Below are positions 6,756-28,198 of a stretch of 32,000 nt of DNA, piece by piece. The position numbers and the translations under genes are program-made. Under the pieces are notes generated by a model that worked only from the letters and a program-made list of their open reading frames with translations, searched no databases and was not told where the DNA came from. The DNA comes from Halomicrobium mukohataei DSM 12286 (GTDB lineage: Archaea; Halobacteriota; Halobacteria; Halobacteriales; Haloarculaceae): the NCBI RefSeq assembly GCF_000023965.1, contig NC_013202.1, positions 1,410,001 to 1,442,000 on the forward strand. The letters run 5' to 3'. The first letter of the stretch is position 1. Each line of letters starts with the position of its first letter.

Positions 6756-8324
6756 ATGGAAGTCGGACTCGTCATTCTGGACGGCTGGGGACTGAACCCC
6801 GACACGGACACCCGGGACGCGGTCGCCGCGGCTGACACGCCCAACGTCGACCGATACCGCGAGATCGGTGCCGACAGCACGCTCGAAACCCACGGGCGTC
6901 GCGTCGGTCTCCCCGAGGGCCAGATGGGCAACTCCGAGGTCGGCCACCTCAACATCGGGGCCGGCCGCGTCGTCACGCAGGACTCGGCTCGCGTCACCGA
7001 CGGGATCGCAGACGGCACCTTCTTCGAGAACGACCGCCTGGAATCGGCCTTCGACTACGCCGAGGCCAACGACGGCGCGGTCCACTTCATGGGGCTGGTC
7101 TCCGACGGCGGCGTCCACTCCTACCAGAAGCACCTCCACGCGCTGATCGACCTCGCCGCCGACCGCGGCGTCGAGGCGGTCACCCACGCCTTCACCGACG
7201 GCCGGGACACCTCGCCGACCGGCGGCGAGGAGTATCTCGCCGACCTGGCAGCCCACGCCGAGGAGCGTGGCACGGGCCACGTCGCCACCGTCGCCGGGCG
7301 CTACTACGCGATGGACCGAGACCAGAACTGGGAGCGCACCCGCCGGGCCTACGACGCCATCGTCTCGCGCGAGGCCGACCACAGCGCCGACACGGCGGTC
7401 GAGGCGGTCACCGGCTCCTACGACCGCGGCGACACCGACGAGTTCGTCGAGCCGACGCTGGTCGAGGGCGATGCCCGACGGGCCCCGGAGAGCGAACGCC
7501 GGCGCGGTGAGCGGGACCGGCCGGCCCTCGACGACGGCGATGCCGTGATCTTCTTCAACTTCCGCTCGGACCGCGCGCGTCAGCTCACGCGCATGCTGGG
7601 CGACGTTCGCCCCGAGGACTGGGGCGGCGACACGGAACCGCCGGAGATCCGGCTGGTCACCATGACCCAGTACGACGCGACCTTCGATCTCCCGGTGGCC
7701 TACCCGCCCAACCAGCCCGAGGACGTGCTCGGAGAGGTGCTGGCCGAGACCGGCCACACGCAGCTTCGCCTGGCCGAGACCGAGAAGTACGCCCACGTCA
7801 CCTACTTCCTCAACGGCGGCCGCGAGGTCGAGTTCGACGGCGAGATCCGCCGGATCGTCGAGAGCCCGGACGTGCCGACCTACGACCAGCAACCGGAGAT
7901 GAGCGCACCCGAAGTCACCGACACCGCCATCGCGGTCATCGAGGACGACGATCCGGACGCGATGGTCTGTAACTACGCCAACGCCGACATGGTGGGCCAC
8001 ACCGGCGACTTCGAGGCCGCCACCGCGGCCGTCGAGGCCGTCGACGAGCAGCTCGGGCGCATGGTCGAGGCGATCACCGAGGCCGGCGGTCACGTCCTCG
8101 TCTGTGCCGACCACGGCAACGCCGACGACATGGGAACCGCCGAGGATCCACACACGGCCCACACGCTCAATCCCGTCCCGTTCGTCTATCTCGGCCCCGA
8201 CGGGACGGCGGCGGGCCGAGAGGCCCGCGACGGCGGGACGCTCGCGGACCTCGCGCCGACGATGCTGTCGCTGCTGGGGATCGACCGACCCGACGCGATG
8301 ACCGGCGAACCGCTGGTCGAGTGA
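6756..8324 (+). CDS. gpmI: 2,3-bisphosphoglycerate-independent phosphoglycerate mutase
   Basis: 522 aa. iPGM blocks are present: LVILDGWG, GNSEVGHLNIGAGR, GLVSDGGVHS, FTDGRDT, NYANADMVGHTG, ADHGNA. Confidence 0.95.
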   Translation: MEVGLVILDGWGLNPDTDTRDAVAAADTPNVDRYREIGADSTLETHGRRVGLPEGQMGNSEVGHLNIGAGRVVTQDSARVTDGIADGTFFENDRLESAFDYAEANDGAVHFMGLVSDGGVHSYQKHLHALIDLAADRGVEAVTHAFTDGRDTSPTGGEEYLADLAAHAEERGTGHVATVAGRYYAMDRDQNWERTRRAYDAIVSREADHSADTAVEAVTGSYDRGDTDEFVEPTLVEGDARRAPESERRRGERDRPALDDGDAVIFFNFRSDRARQLTRMLGDVRPEDWGGDTEPPEIRLVTMTQYDATFDLPVAYPPNQPEDVLGEVLAETGHTQLRLAETEKYAHVTYFLNGGREVEFDGEIRRIVESPDVPTYDQQPEMSAPEVTDTAIAVIEDDDPDAMVCNYANADMVGHTGDFEAATAAVEAVDEQLGRMVEAITEAGGHVLVCADHGNADDMGTAEDPHTAHTLNPVPFVYLGPDGTAAGREARDGGTLADLAPTMLSLLGIDRPDAMTGEPLVE

Positions 8325-21334: not shown

Positions 21335-23785
21335 CTACTGCCAGTCGACCAGATCAGACTGGTAGTAGTTGACGTTCGCCTGCGCCCAGCGTGGGCCCTG
21401 CAGGGCCAGACGCTGGCTGAACGCGTCGAAGTCGCCGATATCGGACGACGACGACCAGCCCAGTTCCGCGATGGCCGCCAGCCGCGGGAACACCATGTAC
21501 TCGATGTCGTCCTGGGTCTCGACGAACTCCGTCCACAGCGGTGCCTCGACGCCGGCGACCGAGGACTCGTCGACGCCGTCGATGTAGCTGCCCGGATCCC
21601 AGGTGTAGGCGTCCTCGACCGAGACCGGTCCCGCCCAGTCCTGGCCCACACCGTCCTGATAGTTGTAGTCTTGATCGAGGTACGCGAGGTGGGCGGGCGA
21701 GGCGATGACGTCGTTGCCCTCGCTGGCCCGGGCCGCGACCTCCGGGGCCTGTGCGTCGGTTCCCCAGTAGTGGAGGAGCGCAGACGTAACGGGCTCCGTG
21801 CTGGCGATCTGGTGCCATCCGATGGGGGTCTTTCCGGCGTCCTCGATCATCGGGAGGACCGCGTCGATGAACTCCTCGTACTTGGCATCCGACAGCACGT
21901 CGGCTTCGTCGCCTCCGACGTGGAAGTACGGGCCGTCCGTCATCTCGGCGACCGCGCTGATGACGTCGGCTGCGAACTGGAGACTCGTCTCCTTGTGCTC
22001 GTCGTCCATGCACAGCGTGGTGTCGCCGACGTTGATGCCGGTGTCTTCCTCGCGTTTCGTGTCGTCACAGTTCAGTTCCGCGTACGACTCCAGGGCCGCC
22101 CCGGTGTGGCCGGGCATGTCGATCTCCGGGACGACCGTCATGTGGCGATCCTGCGCGTACTGGATGATCTCCTGGTAGTCGGCCTTCGTGAAGTAGCCGC
22201 CGGGCCCGCCGTCGACCTCCGAGTCTGCCCCTTCGTCGGTGAGGTTCGGCCAGTCGTCGATCTCGATACGCCAGCCCTGGTCGTCGGTCAGGTGCAGGTG
22301 CAGGTGATTGATCTTGTAGGCCGCCACCTGGTCGATGAACTCCTTGACGACCGACTTGTCGAAGAAGTGCCGTGCCACGTCGAGCATCGCGCCGCGGTAC
22401 TCGAAGCGCGGTGTGTCGGTGACCGAACCGCCGGGGACGACCCAGTCGACGGACTGATCGGTGTCGGCCTCGACCGCCGCCGGGAGCACCTGGCGAAGCG
22501 ACTGGACGCCGTAGAACAGCCCCGCGGCCTCGTTGGCTCGGATCGTGACGCCGTCGCTGTCGACGCTCATCTCGTAGCCCTCGTCGCCGACCGACGAGGG
22601 AGCGCCGTTGAGCAACAGCGCGATGCTGTCCGCGGACGCGGACGAGCCACTCTCGACGGACAGATCGAAGCCGGTCGCCGGCCCCAGCAGGTCGGCGAGG
22701 TACTGTCCGACTTCGGTCCCGCTGCCCTCGGCGACGATCGTCGTCGAGGACGTGATCTCGAAGCCGTCGTCGGCGGTCGTGATGTCGCCCGGCTTCGGCA
22801 CGAGATCGGCCAGCGTCTTCGTGACTGGCTCGGGCGGCCCACAGGCGGTGATCTGCTTCCAGGGGCCTCCATCGCTACTGGGCTCGTCGCCCTTGCTCCA
22901 CCACTTGGCTTCCCAGAGCGTGCCGTCGTAGATGACCTGGTCGCCGCCGGTGTACGTCGTTCCGGAGTCCCACTCCGAGACGCCGCTACACTCGCCGCCG
23001 TCGCCGCCGACGCTGACTGTCGTCGCGTTGGTGTCGGTCGCACCGTCGTCGTCGGTGACGGTGAGTGTGATCGTGTACTCGCCCGACGAGTCGTACGTGT
23101 GGGTCGCGGTCTGACCGCTGGCGGTCGCGTCGTCGCCGAAGTCCCAGGCGTACGACGAAATCGACCCGTCGGCGTCCGAGGAGTCGGCAGCGTCGACGGT
23201 CACCGACTCGCCCGTCGTCGGCGAGGACGGCGAGACGGTGAACGACGCGTTCGGAGCCTCGTTGTCGCTTTCCGAGACGGACACCGTCGTCGATGCCGTC
23301 CCGCTCGCGCCGTCGTCGTCGGTGACGGTGAGTGTGACCGTGTAATCGCCTGCAGAGCCATACGTGTGACTCGCGGTCTGTCCGGTCGCCGTGTCGCCGT
23401 CGCCAAAGTCCCAGGCGTACGAACTCACGGAGCCGTCCGGATCGGACGAGCCCGACGCGTCGAAGGTGACGGACTCGCCCGGCGCGGGTGTACTGATGCT
23501 CGCCGTGAACGACGCGACCGGAGCCTCGTTCTCGGTGTCGCCACTACAGTCGCCGATCTTCGTCCAGACCGAGTCGCTCTCTTCGGGTTCGTTGGCCTGG
23601 GTCCACCACTCGGCTTCCCAGAGAACGTCGTCGTAAACGACGCGGTCGCCGCCGTTGTAGGCGGTGCCGGATTGCCACTGCTGAACGTCGCTGCAATCTG
23701 CTGCCGATGCGGTCCCGCTGACGCCGATCGCCAGCGCAGACAGTGCCGATGCCTTCCGTAGGATGTTGCGTCGTGTCTCTCTCAT
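21335..23785 (-). CDS. secreted GH20 beta-N-acetylhexosaminidase with CBM5/12 - PKD - PKD - CBM5/12 N-terminal modules
   Basis: 816 aa. The Tat signal is MRETRRNILRKASALSALAIGVSGTASA. There are two W..G..Y..GD.V.Y....WEA.WW modules and two PKD modules (F.AS.S.D.DG.I..Y.WDFGD....G....H.Y...G.Y.V.L.V.DD.G). The GH20 core has HLHLTDDQGWRIEI and FHVGGDEA. Confidence 0.9.
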   Translation of the reverse strand: MRETRRNILRKASALSALAIGVSGTASAADCSDVQQWQSGTAYNGGDRVVYDDVLWEAEWWTQANEPEESDSVWTKIGDCSGDTENEAPVASFTASISTPAPGESVTFDASGSSDPDGSVSSYAWDFGDGDTATGQTASHTYGSAGDYTVTLTVTDDDGASGTASTTVSVSESDNEAPNASFTVSPSSPTTGESVTVDAADSSDADGSISSYAWDFGDDATASGQTATHTYDSSGEYTITLTVTDDDGATDTNATTVSVGGDGGECSGVSEWDSGTTYTGGDQVIYDGTLWEAKWWSKGDEPSSDGGPWKQITACGPPEPVTKTLADLVPKPGDITTADDGFEITSSTTIVAEGSGTEVGQYLADLLGPATGFDLSVESGSSASADSIALLLNGAPSSVGDEGYEMSVDSDGVTIRANEAAGLFYGVQSLRQVLPAAVEADTDQSVDWVVPGGSVTDTPRFEYRGAMLDVARHFFDKSVVKEFIDQVAAYKINHLHLHLTDDQGWRIEIDDWPNLTDEGADSEVDGGPGGYFTKADYQEIIQYAQDRHMTVVPEIDMPGHTGAALESYAELNCDDTKREEDTGINVGDTTLCMDDEHKETSLQFAADVISAVAEMTDGPYFHVGGDEADVLSDAKYEEFIDAVLPMIEDAGKTPIGWHQIASTEPVTSALLHYWGTDAQAPEVAARASEGNDVIASPAHLAYLDQDYNYQDGVGQDWAGPVSVEDAYTWDPGSYIDGVDESSVAGVEAPLWTEFVETQDDIEYMVFPRLAAIAELGWSSSSDIGDFDAFSQRLALQGPRWAQANVNYYQSDLVDWQ
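23009..23530 (-). repeat. tandem duplication encoding two PKD modules (about 255 nt each, diverged)
   Basis: Roughly aa 86-170 and aa 175-259 of the hexosaminidase align. Nucleotide runs such as gtcgtcgtcggtgacggtgagtgtga recur. Boundaries are approximate. Confidence 0.7.
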
Positions 23786-24146: not shown

Positions 24147-24473
24147 GAACGGCGACGACGTCGGTGGCGCGAGCGTCTCGCCGTTCACGCGGTGACGCTA
24201 CGCGAGCCAGGCGACTCGCTTACGCGAACTTCTCGATGTCCTCAGAACGCAGGACGTTCTGACTGCCCGAAAAATCGTCTTCAGGCCAGTTCTTCGATGT
24301 TCTGACGGCGCAGCCGTCAGAGGACGAGAAACGGTCTACGACAGTTTCTCGATGTTTTCGCGGCTACGCCGCGAAAGCCCGAGAAGCTTGCGTACGCAAG
24401 CTTCTCGATGTTCCCGGAAGTCTCCGATTTCCGGGCGCACGAAAAGTTGGCCTTAGGCCAACTTTTCGATGTT
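24147..24473 (-). repeat. array of six copies (one genuine, five extragenic) of the icd 3'-terminal 21-nt core, each embedded in hairpins; period 55-61 bp
   Basis: Cores lie at 24453-24473 (true end), 24392-24412, 24336-24356, 24281-24301, 24220-24240 and 24165-24185. All contain cgatgt or a variant. See the findings for minus-strand translations and stems. Confidence 0.85.
24441..24467 (-). terminator. perfect 12-bp hairpin with the icd TAA stop codon as its 3-nt loop, ending in a U4 run on the transcript
   Basis: gaaaagttggcc (24441-24452), tta (24453-24455), ggccaacttttc (24456-24467). On the minus-strand RNA this reads GAAAAGUUGGCC-UAA-GGCCAACUUUUC. Confidence 0.45.
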
Positions 24474-25730
24474 TTCGACGATGGCGTCCGAGTACTCCTC
24501 GGTGCCGAGCTTCTCGGCGTCTTCGAGCTGGCGTTCGAGGTCGTAGGTGACCGTGCCCGAGGAGATCGTCTCCTCGACGGCGTCGCGAACGAGGTCGGCT
24601 GCGTCCTTCCAGCCCATGTAGTCGAACATCAGACGGCCCGAGAGGATCATCGCGGTCGGGTTGGCCATGTTCTGGCCGGCGCGTTTCGGGGCCGAGCCGT
24701 GGACGGGCTCTGCGAGCACGCGGGCGTCACCGAAGTTCGCGCCGGGCGCGATGCCGAGGCCGCCGATCTGTGCGCCGGCGGCGTCCGAGAGGTAGTCGCC
24801 GTTGAGGTTCGGCATGGCGAGAACGCTGAACTCGTCGGTCCGGAGCTGCATCCACTGGAGCATCGCGTCGGCGAGTCTGGACTCGACCATGACGGCGTCC
24901 TCGGGAATGTCGATCTCGTCCTGGGTCTCCCAGAGAGAGTCGGGCGCGGCGAAGACCTCGTCGTCGGGGTACTCCTCGTCGGCGACTTCCATGCCCCACT
25001 CGGTGAACTGGCCCTCGGTGAACTTCATGATGTTGCCCTTGCCGACGAGCGTGACCTTGTCGCGGTCGTGCTCGATGGCGTAGTCGATGGCCTTGCGGAC
25101 CAGCCGCTTGGAACCGAACTCGGTGATCGGCTTGATGCCGATGCCGATCGGGCCGTCGTGCATCACGTCGTCGAAGCCCATGTCCTCCTCGACGAACTCC
25201 CGGACCTGCTCGACCTCTTCGGTGCCGGCCTCCCACTCGATGCCGGCGTAGACGTCTTCCGTGTTCTCACGGAAGGTGACCATGTCCATCTCCTCGGGCG
25301 CTTTCATCGGCGACGGGACGCCGTCGAGGTAGTAGGTCGGTCGGACGTTCGAGTAGAAGTCGAGCGTCTGGCGCAGCGCGACGTTGAGCGAGCGGAAGCC
25401 AGCGCCGACCGGGGTCGTCAGCGGCCCCTTGATGGCGACGCGGTGCTCGTCGATCGCGTTGACGGTGTCGTCGGGGAGGTTCTCGTCGTACTTCTCTCGG
25501 GCGGACTCGCCAGCGAAGACGCGCATCCACGAGATCTCGCGGCCTGTGGCGTTCGCGGCGGCCTCCAGGACCTTCTGGGCGGCCGGTCCCACGTCCTTCC
25601 CGATGCCGTCCCCGTGGATGATGGGGACGATCGGATTCTCAGGAATATCGAGTTCGTCGTTGTCCTCGTCGACGACCTCGATCTTCTCGCCTTCGGCAGG
25701 CACCTCGACCTTGTCGTAATCGTAGCTCAT
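24453..25730 (-). CDS. icd: isocitrate dehydrogenase (NADP-dependent)
   Basis: Within ORF 24453..26348. The true start is MSYDYDKVEVPAEGEKI (25730). Blocks present: IIHGDGIGKDV, IKGPLTTPVG, FRSLNVALRQ, NLNGDYLSDA, GGLGIAPGAN, EPVHGSAPK. A TATA-like box lies 24-29 nt upstream. Confidence 0.95.
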   Translation of the reverse strand: MSYDYDKVEVPAEGEKIEVVDEDNDELDIPENPIVPIIHGDGIGKDVGPAAQKVLEAAANATGREISWMRVFAGESAREKYDENLPDDTVNAIDEHRVAIKGPLTTPVGAGFRSLNVALRQTLDFYSNVRPTYYLDGVPSPMKAPEEMDMVTFRENTEDVYAGIEWEAGTEEVEQVREFVEEDMGFDDVMHDGPIGIGIKPITEFGSKRLVRKAIDYAIEHDRDKVTLVGKGNIMKFTEGQFTEWGMEVADEEYPDDEVFAAPDSLWETQDEIDIPEDAVMVESRLADAMLQWMQLRTDEFSVLAMPNLNGDYLSDAAGAQIGGLGIAPGANFGDARVLAEPVHGSAPKRAGQNMANPTAMILSGRLMFDYMGWKDAADLVRDAVEETISSGTVTYDLERQLEDAEKLGTEEYSDAIVENIEKLA

Positions 25731-26996: not shown

Positions 26997-27890
26997 ATGA
27001 CAGACGTGGACCTGGCCGCCGAGAAGTACGAGAAACATCGCGAGGCCGGAGAGATCCTGGCACAGGTGCGCAACGAGGCCGCCGATCGACTCGAAGTGGG
27101 GACCGGCTACCTCGAAATCTCCCAGTGGGCCGAAGACCGGATCCGGGAACTGGGCGGCGAGCCCGCCTTCCCGGTCAACGTCAGCGTCGACCACGAGGCC
27201 GCCCACGGGGCCGCCGGGCCGGACGACGACCGCACCGTCGGCGAGCAGATGGTGAAACTGGACATCGGCGTCCACATCGACGGGTGGCTGGCAGACACGG
27301 CCGTCACGGTGGATCTCTCGGGCAACGACGAGCTGAAGACCGCCGCCGACGAGGCCCTCGACGCGGCACTGGACGCCGTCGAGGCCGGCGTCCAGACCGG
27401 CGAAATCGGTGCCGTCATCGAGGACGTCATCGAGGGGTACGGCTACAACCCGGTGGTCAACCTGACGGGCCACGGGCTGGGCCACTGGGAGCAACACACC
27501 GAGCCGAACGTCCCCAACCGGTCGATTCCCGGCGGTGCGACCCTGGAGGCGGGACAGGTCGTCGCGATCGAGCCGTTCGCCACGACCGGGACGGGGAAGG
27601 TAAACGAGGGCGCGACAGAGGAGATCTTCTCGCTGGAACGGGAGGGGTCGGTCCGCAACCGGGAGGCCCGACAGGCGCTGAACCAGATCACCGAGGAGTT
27701 CAGGACCCTGCCGTTCGCGGCCCGGTGGCTCGACGTGTCCCGTCCGGGGATGGCGCTCCGTCGCCTGAAACAGCAAGACATCGTTCACGGCTATCCGGTC
27801 CTCCAGGAAGCCGAGGGCGAACTCGTCAGCCAGAGAGAACACACCGTCATCGTCACCGAGGACGGCTGTGAAGTGACGACGCGGCTGTAG
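26997..27890 (+). CDS. map: type II methionine aminopeptidase
   Basis: Within ORF 26970..27890, whose track start is TTG. I prefer ATG 26997 (MTDVDLAAEKYEKHREAGEI). Blocks present: AFPVNVSV...AAHG, KLDIGVHIDGWLADTA, GHGL, EHTV. Confidence 0.92.
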   Translation: MTDVDLAAEKYEKHREAGEILAQVRNEAADRLEVGTGYLEISQWAEDRIRELGGEPAFPVNVSVDHEAAHGAAGPDDDRTVGEQMVKLDIGVHIDGWLADTAVTVDLSGNDELKTAADEALDAALDAVEAGVQTGEIGAVIEDVIEGYGYNPVVNLTGHGLGHWEQHTEPNVPNRSIPGGATLEAGQVVAIEPFATTGTGKVNEGATEEIFSLEREGSVRNREARQALNQITEEFRTLPFAARWLDVSRPGMALRRLKQQDIVHGYPVLQEAEGELVSQREHTVIVTEDGCEVTTRL

Positions 27891-28013
27891 CACCGGTCGC
27901 GACGGAGGAGCGATCGGCTTTTTCCCCCAGGTTTTTCCACGAGGGGTCGTGAGCGTAGCGAACGACCCGCAGTGGAAAAAGGTGGTAGCCGACGGCTGTG
28001 AAGTGACGACGCG
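27861..28013 (+). repeat. 23-bp perfect direct repeat of the map 3' end (27861-27883 = 27991-28013) bracketing a 107-bp insert
   Basis: Both copies read gacggctgtgaagtgacgacgcg (encoding DGCEVTTR). The first continues gctgtag (L*) and the second continues tctcgactga (LD*). Confidence 0.9.
27916..27990. other. long imperfect palindrome inside the insert (possible miniature mobile or protein-binding element)
   Basis: The core arms are tttttccacgaggggtcgt (27932-27950) and acgacccgcagtggaaaaa (27962-27980). 16 of 19 positions are complementary, around an 11-nt loop. Weaker pairing extends out to ggct (27916-27919) / agcc (27987-27990). Confidence 0.7.
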
Positions 28014-28067
28014 TCTCGACTGACGCGCTCTCGGTGGACTGCCGTCGAGTACGCTGGCGCTCGACGG
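28010..28067 (+). terminator. two hairpins after the displaced (second) copy of the map end
   Basis: cgcgtc (28010-28015) / gacgcg (28022-28027) has the TGA at 28021-28023 straddling its loop. An 8-bp stem follows: ccgtcgag (28042-28049) / ctcgacgg (28060-28067). Confidence 0.3.
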
Positions 28068-28198
28068 TGAGCGCTCAGAAGGTGGCGTGGGTGGTGGGTG
28101 GTGCCGGGATGTCGGTCGCGTACGGCTTCTCGTCGCCGTTTTCCCGGTCGACCGCACGTCGTCGTGCGATCGATCCGGTGCAGACCGACAATACTCCG

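Follow-up and report, generated by a model that had tools for sequence, protein, structure and literature searches.

The subject of this analysis is a short palindromic insert at the 3′ end of map, the gene for type II methionine aminopeptidase, in the archaeon Halomicrobium mukohataei DSM 12286. The DNA analyzed, referred to here as the window, comprises 32,000 nucleotides (nt) of contig NC_013202.1 (positions 1,410,001 to 1,442,000 of the forward strand). Within it the end of map is present twice, as an upstream copy (A) that completes the gene and a downstream copy (B), and a palindromic sequence of 104–107 nt lies between these repeats, which measure 23 nt if perfect and 26 nt if extended (Table 1).

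The duplicated map end and its insert

The sequence GACGGCTGTGAAGTGACGACGCG occurs at exactly two places in the window, 27861–27883 and 27991–28013; 100 dinucleotide shuffles produced no match to it, even with up to three mismatches, so that the chance expectation is none. The repeat extends to 26 nt (27861–27886 and 27991–28016) with a single G/T mismatch. A first-pass annotation had reported the perfect 23-bp duplication and had read the two ends as TTRL* upstream and DGCEVTTRLD* downstream, the latter with its own hairpins 3′ of it, and both descriptions were accurate. A diversity-generating retroelement was considered and rejected, since the sole difference between copies A and B is G versus T, not confined to adenine, and no reverse transcriptase-like open reading frame (ORF) appears in the ORF list for 25.5–30 kb, which was not subjected to a domain search.

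Table 1. Features around the 3′ end of map, in window coordinates
Feature	Positions	Strand	Basis
map, type II methionine aminopeptidase, 297 aa; ATG at 26997, C-terminus ...EDGCEVTTRL, TAG stop at 27888–27890	26997..27890	+	ORF list and sequence; PF00557
Copy A of the map 3′ end, in frame and functional; upstream repeat arm	27861..27886	+	Repeat and empty-site alignment
104-nt double-hairpin element; starts GTAG (supplies or overlaps the stop), ends ...AAAAAGGTGGTAGCC	27887..27990	+	Alignment gap against H. katesii; family-profile nhmmer E 2e-18
Hairpin 1; stem CCGGTCGC / GCGATCGG (arms 27893–27900 / 27910–27917), loop GACGGAGGA (GA-C-GGA-G-GA mini-hairpin type)	27893..27917	+	Folds; family-wide equivalents
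Core conserved in the family, GCTTTTTC-C-CCCA-G-GTTTTT; contains two T5 tracts, of which the one immediately past hairpin 1 ends in C	27917..27936	+	No variation among 42 aligned copies
Hairpin 2, long imperfect palindrome; arms 27927–27950 / 27962–27985, 79% complementary	27927..27985	+	Folds; family covariation
Copy B, displaced or spare map end DGCEVTTRLD-TGA; TGA stop at 28021–28023	27991..28023	+	Repeat arm 27991–28016, mismatch at 28014
Native downstream hairpin CCGTCGAG...CTCGACGG; arms 28042–28049 / 28060–28067	28042..28067	+	Also at the empty site of relatives

The insert contains no ORF, and no integrase gene lies at the map site. Its long imperfect palindrome had been recognized in the first pass, with arms somewhat shorter than those found here, while hairpin 1 had not been singled out. 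Hairpin 2 consists of a base (CCAGG-TTTTT / AAAAA-GGTGG), an inner stem (GGGTCGT / ACGACCC) and an apical GAGCGTAGCGA mini-hairpin at 27951–27961. The insert folds with −46.9 kcal/mol as RNA (z −3.2 against shuffles) and with −24.4 kcal/mol as DNA (z −3.7). A 13-nt segment of the element, TTTTTCCCCCAGG, is directly repeated as TTTTTCCACGAGG at 27919–27944 with 85% identity. An Rfam search of the window region matched no family, and a BLAST comparison of the insert with phage records gave a chance match only.

Comparison with relatives showed that the map element is an insertion/deletion polymorphism and that close relatives keep an intact single-copy site. The syntenic locus of Halomicrobium katesii (L001), whose Map protein shares 95% amino acid identity with that of the window, is ~95% identical on both sides and lacks exactly 130 bp of the window, namely the 104-nt element (27887–27990) and the 26-nt repeat. 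The site is also empty in a second H. mukohataei strain (WOYG01, L129), in which map is 97.2% identical to the window gene. In both relatives the site reads ...ACGACGCGGCTCGACTGA once, with flanks 95–97% identical. Map ends in TTRLD* in H. katesii, the second H. mukohataei strain and three other Halomicrobium isolates (the DNA, inspected for two, has a single copy and no insert), and the 90% protein cluster of the window Map includes Halomicrobium isolates with a 298-aa protein ending in TTRLD. The 26-nt copies of the window are too alike to tell which is nearer the relatives; the tails alone differ, that of copy B matching the relatives’ TTRLD*. The tail of copy B and the sequence beyond it are identical to the functional map end of H. 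katesii and WOYG01, both of which have the empty site; copy B and all that follows are thus the gene end that relatives use. The earlier proposal that an ancestral gene end was displaced by an insertion is borne out by these observations, and the empty site ending in TTRLD*, which it had suggested seeking, exists in H. katesii and in the second H. mukohataei strain.

More distant relatives have the element at the same place. Halomicrobium-like metagenome contigs (map 86.5% identical) contain it at the same map position with the same repeat boundary, identical to the window element at 90 of 104 positions in L133 and at 82 of 104 in L130–L132. In another genus (L127; Map 80% identical in amino acids) two tandem units of a variant with a long hairpin share this boundary. 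No element is present at map in L134, Halorientalis IM1011 or Salinibaculum rarum. The S. rarum gene, which lacks an element, nevertheless ends in CTG-TAG like copy A of the window; the new last codon and stop, which the first-pass annotation had ascribed to the insertion, may thus not stem from the element’s first bases, and copy A may instead have been imported as an allele. Between the window and L133 the element differs by 13.5% and the third codon positions of map by 33%, which points to constraint on the element.

Two further observations concern sequence beyond copy B. In L131 (2491–2590), L132 and L130 it is followed by a run of further decayed map-end copies of ~20 nt, adjacent to one another with no hairpin element between, each closing with an in-frame stop (...TTGTGA, ...CTCTGA, ...TCGTAA, ...GGTGA); GTGAC microhomology at the borders of these units suggests slippage. 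In the native downstream region of the window, positions 28076–28085 after the hairpin read CAGAAGGTGG, and H. katesii has CAAAAGGCGG at the same place. Both resemble the right end of the element family, GAAAAAGGTGG, and could represent an older degenerate element copy near map, or a coincidence.

A two-hairpin family at gene ends of Haloarculaceae

The first lead to other copies was a weak BLAST match on a Haloarcula marina plasmid, in which two conserved blocks were seen, the hairpins between them showing compensatory changes. When GCTTTTTCNCCCANGTTTTT was scanned against one genome per species, at least 120 stretches matched. About 75 of the matches listed belong to Halosimplex, Halorientalis, Haloarcula, Salinibaculum, Halovenus and metagenome-assembled genomes (MAGs) of unclassified Halobacteriales, with several per genome (at least eight in Halosimplex aquaticum and at least nine in Halorientalis regularis). 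The remaining matches to the core pattern fall in low-GC bacterial coding sequence and are consistent with chance, and viral contigs scanned with this pattern yielded four low-GC chance matches only. The further insert copies that the first-pass annotation had proposed looking for therefore form a multi-copy family that extends across genera of the Haloarculaceae. Text searches of the literature for the core sequence and for repeats in these genera returned no prior description, and the family and its placement between duplicated gene ends appear to be undescribed. A short version outside this group, with GCTTTTTCGCCCACGTTTTT, a small hairpin and AAAAAGGTGG, was noted in a 41% GC MAG of Candidatus Aenigmatarchaeota (DPANN; L018, 1221–1275); cross-lineage transfer or contamination from a haloarchaeal host is possible.

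The family architecture comprises hairpin 1, the core GCTTTTTC-N-CCCA-N-GTTTTT, hairpin 2 and the right end GAAAAAGGTGG (GAAAAAG-R-TGG across subfamilies); the core is invariant across 42 aligned copies. Two subfamilies are set apart by covariation at the base of hairpin 2 (CCAC/GTGG in one and CCAT/ATGG in the other, with eight double changes). Hairpin 1 contains the motif GA-N-CG-N-AG-N’-GA in 47 of 82 copies, N and N’ being complementary in all 47; these hairpins have 29 distinct outer stems, and the middle of the triloop can be any base. C-GNA-G loops with G-A pairs on either side characterize DNA mini-hairpins of extraordinary stability (PMC13037366, PMC3201870). Because stems of variable length misalign, RNAalifold applied to a MAFFT alignment detected no more than the base of hairpin 2, and motif counts per copy were used instead. 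An Rfam search of eight element-bearing loci matched no family. In long variants (L074, L093, L095, L103 at 6775–6920, L112 and L127), hairpin 2 holds two or three extra nested GA-N-CG-N-AG-N-GA modules, a pattern that suggests modular hairpin accretion inside the palindrome.

The two subfamilies, referred to here as CCCACG/GGTGG and CCCATG/GATGG, differ in their surroundings. In the first, a co-oriented gene end lies upstream in 39 of 44 copies, within 150 nt of the core in 36 and at a median distance of 50 nt, which places the stop codon directly before hairpin 1. The host genes are housekeeping genes and include those for OTCase, PheT, HisF, HisH, NusG/Spt5, a SufS-like protein, ETF-alpha and Map. 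TAG precedes hairpin 1 in 24 of 43 copies against a background of 36% (2.2-fold, p = 0.014) and is usually the host gene’s stop codon. At ~30 copies a second copy of the upstream gene’s 3′ end was found past the element, beginning 0–15 nt after GGTGG, with perfect cores of 19–96 nt and gapped lengths of 26–132 nt. The flanking gene-end repeat is thus a hallmark of the CCCACG/GGTGG subfamily, and the map case is not a one-off. Several loci are arrays of gene end plus element in which the gene-end copies are identical and hairpin 1 (L111) or hairpin 2 (L107) differs between units; such arrays are not simple tandem copies. Beyond the gene-end copy that lies furthest downstream there is often no complete element but just its 5′ part (L043, L091, L089 and L025). 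The suggestion in the first-pass annotation that a lineage-specific process acts on gene termini holds in so far as dozens of genes have the arrangement of gene end, element and end copy; the process is not lineage-specific, since it extends across genera of the Haloarculaceae.

Copies of the CCCATG/GATGG subfamily, most of them from Halosimplex, have an extra upstream hairpin and no flanking repeat, and in 25 of 28 cases a convergent gene has its stop codon immediately next to the GATGG end. In L077, L083, L098 and L029 the right end is doubled, e.g., GATGGAAACTA-GATGGTCTA, and the convergent gene gains two in-frame stops 9 nt apart; in L029 ends of the GGTGG and GATGG types stand side by side, as though an element end had landed next to an older one.

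Two ideas about the duplicated segment found no support. If hairpin 1 were built from the local target, its 5′ arm should resemble the start of the duplicated segment at its own locus, and the scores were 5.97 for own-locus and 5.63 for cross-locus comparisons (permutation p = 0.07). If the duplication preserved a promoter for a co-directional downstream gene, the repeat should go with such neighbors, and no clear link was seen: downstream neighbors were co-directional in 18 and convergent in 12 cases with the repeat and co-directional in 7 and convergent in 10 without it; the downstream neighbor of the map element in the window is convergent.

The manner in which copies A and B differ bears on their history. 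Among 37 A/B pairs, mismatches at codon positions 1, 2 and 3 numbered 18, 11 and 57, and 55 codon changes were synonymous versus 27 nonsynonymous. The third-position share was 66%, compared with ~44% expected by our own estimate if B decayed while A was under selection. Stop codons are exchanged for other stop codons between A and B (L080, L041). The divergent copy was the functional one in two of three informative comparisons with relatives: in argF of Halorientalis pallida (L043), copy B is 2 mismatches from the functional copy of H. regularis while its own copy A is 6 away, and in nusG of Haloarcula, copy A of L071 is the outlier while its copy B is 1 mismatch from copy B of L065. At other shared sites A equals B within a genome, yet 6–18 mismatches separate species. 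The first 5–15 nt of B, adjoining the element, are far more diverged than the rest of it. Judged from the sequences, a single duplication followed by neutral decay does not account for these patterns, which agree with concerted evolution through gene conversion and the occasional import of a foreign gene end. In the nusG/spt5 comparison of L065 (1666–1770) with L071 (954–1060), copy B and ~40 nt beyond it are 98% identical, the flanking genes 90–93% and the A copies 83%; copy B may overlap a constrained signal there, e.g., the leader of the downstream gene.

The placement of the element also bears on its probable function. Intergenic termination sites of Haloferax volcanii consist of T stretches with termination at C, often after a hairpin (PMC7237163). 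In the window, the stop codon (27888–27890), hairpin 1 (27893–27917) and CTTTTTC (27918–27924) follow one another and match the T-stretch/TC motif of that study (five or more T ending in C). Hairpin 1 is followed by C-TTTTT-C, with a second T5 13 nt later, and the opposite strand of the element offers CCACCTTTTTC. This match and the consistent placement behind stop codons make it likely that the element is a portable transcription terminator, composed of a stable hairpin, T5-C and a second T5. A simple terminator scan did not call hairpin 1, whose 9-nt loop lies beyond the loop limit of the scan.

Origin and spread of the element

Window positions 27887–27990 represent a member of a non-coding two-hairpin family of the Haloarculaceae, lying co-directionally at the end of map. 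The account to which we incline, if only slightly, is that this member is a portable terminator that is moved by recombination or replication without a transposase or integrase of its own. Recombination and replication are favored by the range of repeat lengths (19 to ~130 nt), the different gene end at each locus, the existence of a repeat-free subfamily and the patterns of A/B divergence. Recombination of A with B would delete the element precisely and could regenerate empty sites like that of H. katesii. With the gene body and copy B as homology arms, the cassette could move to the orthologue in a different chromosome copy, strain or species and bring a foreign copy A with it, and gene conversion in polyploid cells would keep B similar to A. 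Gene conversion is reported to be highly efficient in polyploid Haloferax (PMC11276520). As to how A, element and B first come together at a new gene, our conjecture is that stalled forks bounded by the hairpins switched template or that an illegitimate join was anchored by homology; alternatively, the primary event might have been carried out by an enzyme that recognizes the conserved core, and the DNA-type loops keep a route through an HUH enzyme and single-stranded DNA (ssDNA) alive.

A more specific form of this idea can be advanced only tentatively, and we regard it as rather doubtful: the element would be a protein-free, homology-armed mobile terminator, a ~100-nt cassette whose right flank is a spare 3′ end of the host gene and which excises precisely, homes by host recombination into the same housekeeping gene of further chromosome copies, strains and species, and swaps gene ends while stacking old ones downstream.

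Several observations weigh against movement by host recombination or replication alone. Flanking repeats are missing from the CCCATG/GATGG subfamily, so that family members need not have them. An enzyme could equally well recognize the conserved core and the defined right end, GGTGG, and homologous recombination with a 26-nt arm may be inefficient. Mismatch density between the window map and that of the closest strain is uniform, at 1–4 per 100 nt, with no divergent tract beside the insert and hence no sign of an imported end at map. A profile search of the 32-kb window found a single element copy, that of 21 kb of H. katesii none, and a metagenome scan with the window-specific variant of the core returned three chance matches and no further copy; these results lend no support to recent mobility within Halomicrobium. 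It is equally possible that an old insertion at map was lost precisely in the nearest relatives or that it was re-acquired by the lineage of the window.

An unlikely alternative is that the element resembles repetitive extragenic palindromes (REPs) or palindrome-associated transposable elements (PATEs) and was moved as ssDNA by an IS200/IS605- or RAYT-type HUH (Y1) enzyme, with slippage or unequal crossing-over at hairpins duplicating the gene ends secondarily. The C-GNA-G loops flanked by tandem G-A fit the stable DNA mini-hairpin motif, N being free as in that motif, and the hairpins have a subterminal position. GTAG, with which the window copy opens, is the head tetranucleotide of REPs (PMC3733652), and IS200/IS605 elements and their hairpin-only derivatives, the PATEs, are abundant in haloarchaea (PMC3119063). 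Such systems, however, insert without duplication, whereas the difference between filled and empty site in the window includes a 26-nt duplication. Moreover, no common target tetranucleotide is evident at the left junctions, and TAG before hairpin 1 is mostly just the host stop codon, enriched only 2.2-fold.

Transposition of a MITE (miniature inverted-repeat transposable element) is likewise improbable. A trans-acting transposase would have made staggered cuts, and the flanking repeat would be a long target-site duplication. The element does belong to a multi-copy family with a sharply defined right end, the empty and filled sites differ cleanly by 130 bp with a direct repeat of target sequence, and some haloarchaeal insertion sequence (IS) elements make unusually long duplications. 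Transposases, though, give duplications of fixed length, whereas the repeat ranges from 19 to ~130 nt between loci and one subfamily has no duplication at all. The ends, GTAGCACC... and ...GGTGGTAGCC, share only the 4-nt CACC/GGTG, the inverted repeats being internal hairpins. Duplication in situ predicts neither the concentration of A/B differences at synonymous sites nor the divergence of the upstream copy in L043 and L071. No transposase-bearing version was seen, although none was systematically searched for.

With still less confidence, the element can be regarded as a structured RNA, either a 3′-untranslated region module or a small RNA with a function at the RNA level, whose distribution reflects vertical descent and loss and not mobility. 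Its stems covary, its orientation relative to the upstream gene is consistent, and the 86.5% identity of the map-site element between the window and L133, despite the third-position difference, indicates constraint. Against this stand the absence of an Rfam match for the window region and eight element-bearing loci, the occurrence at unrelated genes in different genomes, the arrays, the absence from the window’s closest relatives and a loop type typical of DNA rather than RNA hairpins. An RNA-level function is compatible with the terminator moved by recombination or replication and is not exclusive of it.

Integrative elements duplicate the 3′ end of their target gene, and the first-pass annotation had likened the repeat to an integrase att core, by which the 107-nt insert would be the remnant of an integrated element. 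This is very improbable and was abandoned: with its 104 nt of hairpins that encode nothing, the insert is no remnant but a full member of a family of ~100-nt elements, its relatives are flanked by many different gene ends of 19 to ~130 nt with no constant core, and the map site has no integrase gene. Equally hard to credit is a local accident in which the gene end was doubled by replication slippage and the palindrome formed in situ; direct repeats beside hairpins are classic slippage products, and arrays of gene ends that lack this element occur at icd in the window and at map in L131, but the inserted sequence is homologous to ~75 copies elsewhere among the matches listed and was not generated locally.

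The icd array is the other duplicated gene end in the window. At the 3′ end of icd on the minus strand (24200–24480), five successive copies of the last ~20 nt encode NIEKLA-stop variants (TAA, TAG, TGA and one TAC), each followed by a hairpin formed with its own reverse complement and then by a second hairpin, with a spacing of 61, 55, 56 and 61 nt; icd of H. katesii has two end copies only (L001, 7380–7480). The array shows the same gene-end stacking with coding-like variation as map-type loci. The parallel drawn between icd and map in the first pass is upheld for this stacking and fails for the insert, as icd units gave no match to the map element profile. Elsewhere in the window, 22880–23700 contains diverged internal repeats (209 nt at 23009/23276, 76% identical; 114 nt at 22880/23585, 75%), probably inside a large gene with PKD/CBM domains, as seen at the H. 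katesii locus.

In bacteria, transcription and genome plasticity are shaped by small structured repeats, REPs and MITEs among them; few have been characterized in archaea. The family would provide the Haloarculaceae with a recognizable portable terminator module, and insertion, loss and inter-lineage recombination at housekeeping genes can be read from the traces that it leaves. It also rewrites or duplicates the C-terminal coding ends of essential genes, which will otherwise be misread by annotators as variable C-termini or pseudogene fragments. Homology-armed spread, if true, would be a mode not described for prokaryotic small repeats, would show that a non-coding element can be mobile by host recombination alone in polyploid, recombination-prone archaea, and might explain the fossil stacks of gene ends at icd and map.

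Comparison with known systems

Bacterial MITEs of the Correia/ERIC type are small palindromic repeats near gene ends that can terminate or stabilize transcripts; unlike the haloarchaeal element, they have terminal inverted repeats and a fixed TA duplication. REPs and bacterial interspersed mosaic elements (BIMEs) are also short GC-rich extragenic palindromes with many copies directly behind genes, structure kept more than sequence, and proposed roles in termination and mRNA stabilization (PMC3733652); the window copy has a GTAG head, although the TAG before hairpin 1 is usually the host gene’s stop codon across the family. REPs, however, are single hairpins of 20–40 nt with no conserved T-rich core and no duplicated gene-end flanks, whereas the element has two hairpins in ~100 nt.

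The PATEs, MITEs and SMRs of Haloquadratum walsbyi and other haloarchaea (PMC3119063) are similar in size (~50–110 nt), in the lack of a transposase, in their prominent hairpins and, for some, in strain-specific presence or absence. PATEs and SMRs differ in that their target is not duplicated and that IS605 ends are their source or their target, and the MITEs of that study have terminal inverted repeats and short fixed duplications. None of these elements is described there between duplicated gene 3′ ends, and text search revealed no sequence similarity. As in the intrinsic terminators of haloarchaea (PMC7237163), hairpin 1 and GCTTTTTC reproduce the termination motif directly past stop codons; unlike ordinary terminators, the element recurs as a homologous module of 100 nt, which also has a second, long palindrome and whose 3′ end is conserved.

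The closest architecture described is that of the gene hybrids produced by mobile ORFs (homing endonucleases) in fungal mitochondria, i.e., atp6 of Allomyces and atp6, atp9, cox2 and nad3 of Glomus (PMC3630166). In these hybrids a gene body is followed by an inserted C-terminal end, the insert and the native C-terminal copy, an order also found in the window and at ~30 other loci, and the downstream copy can likewise be nearer to relatives than the functional copy (L043, L071). The mobile-ORF inserts encode a homing endonuclease in ~1 kb, whereas the insert of haloarchaeal chromosomes consists of ~100 nt of non-coding hairpins between duplicated ends of 19–130 nt.

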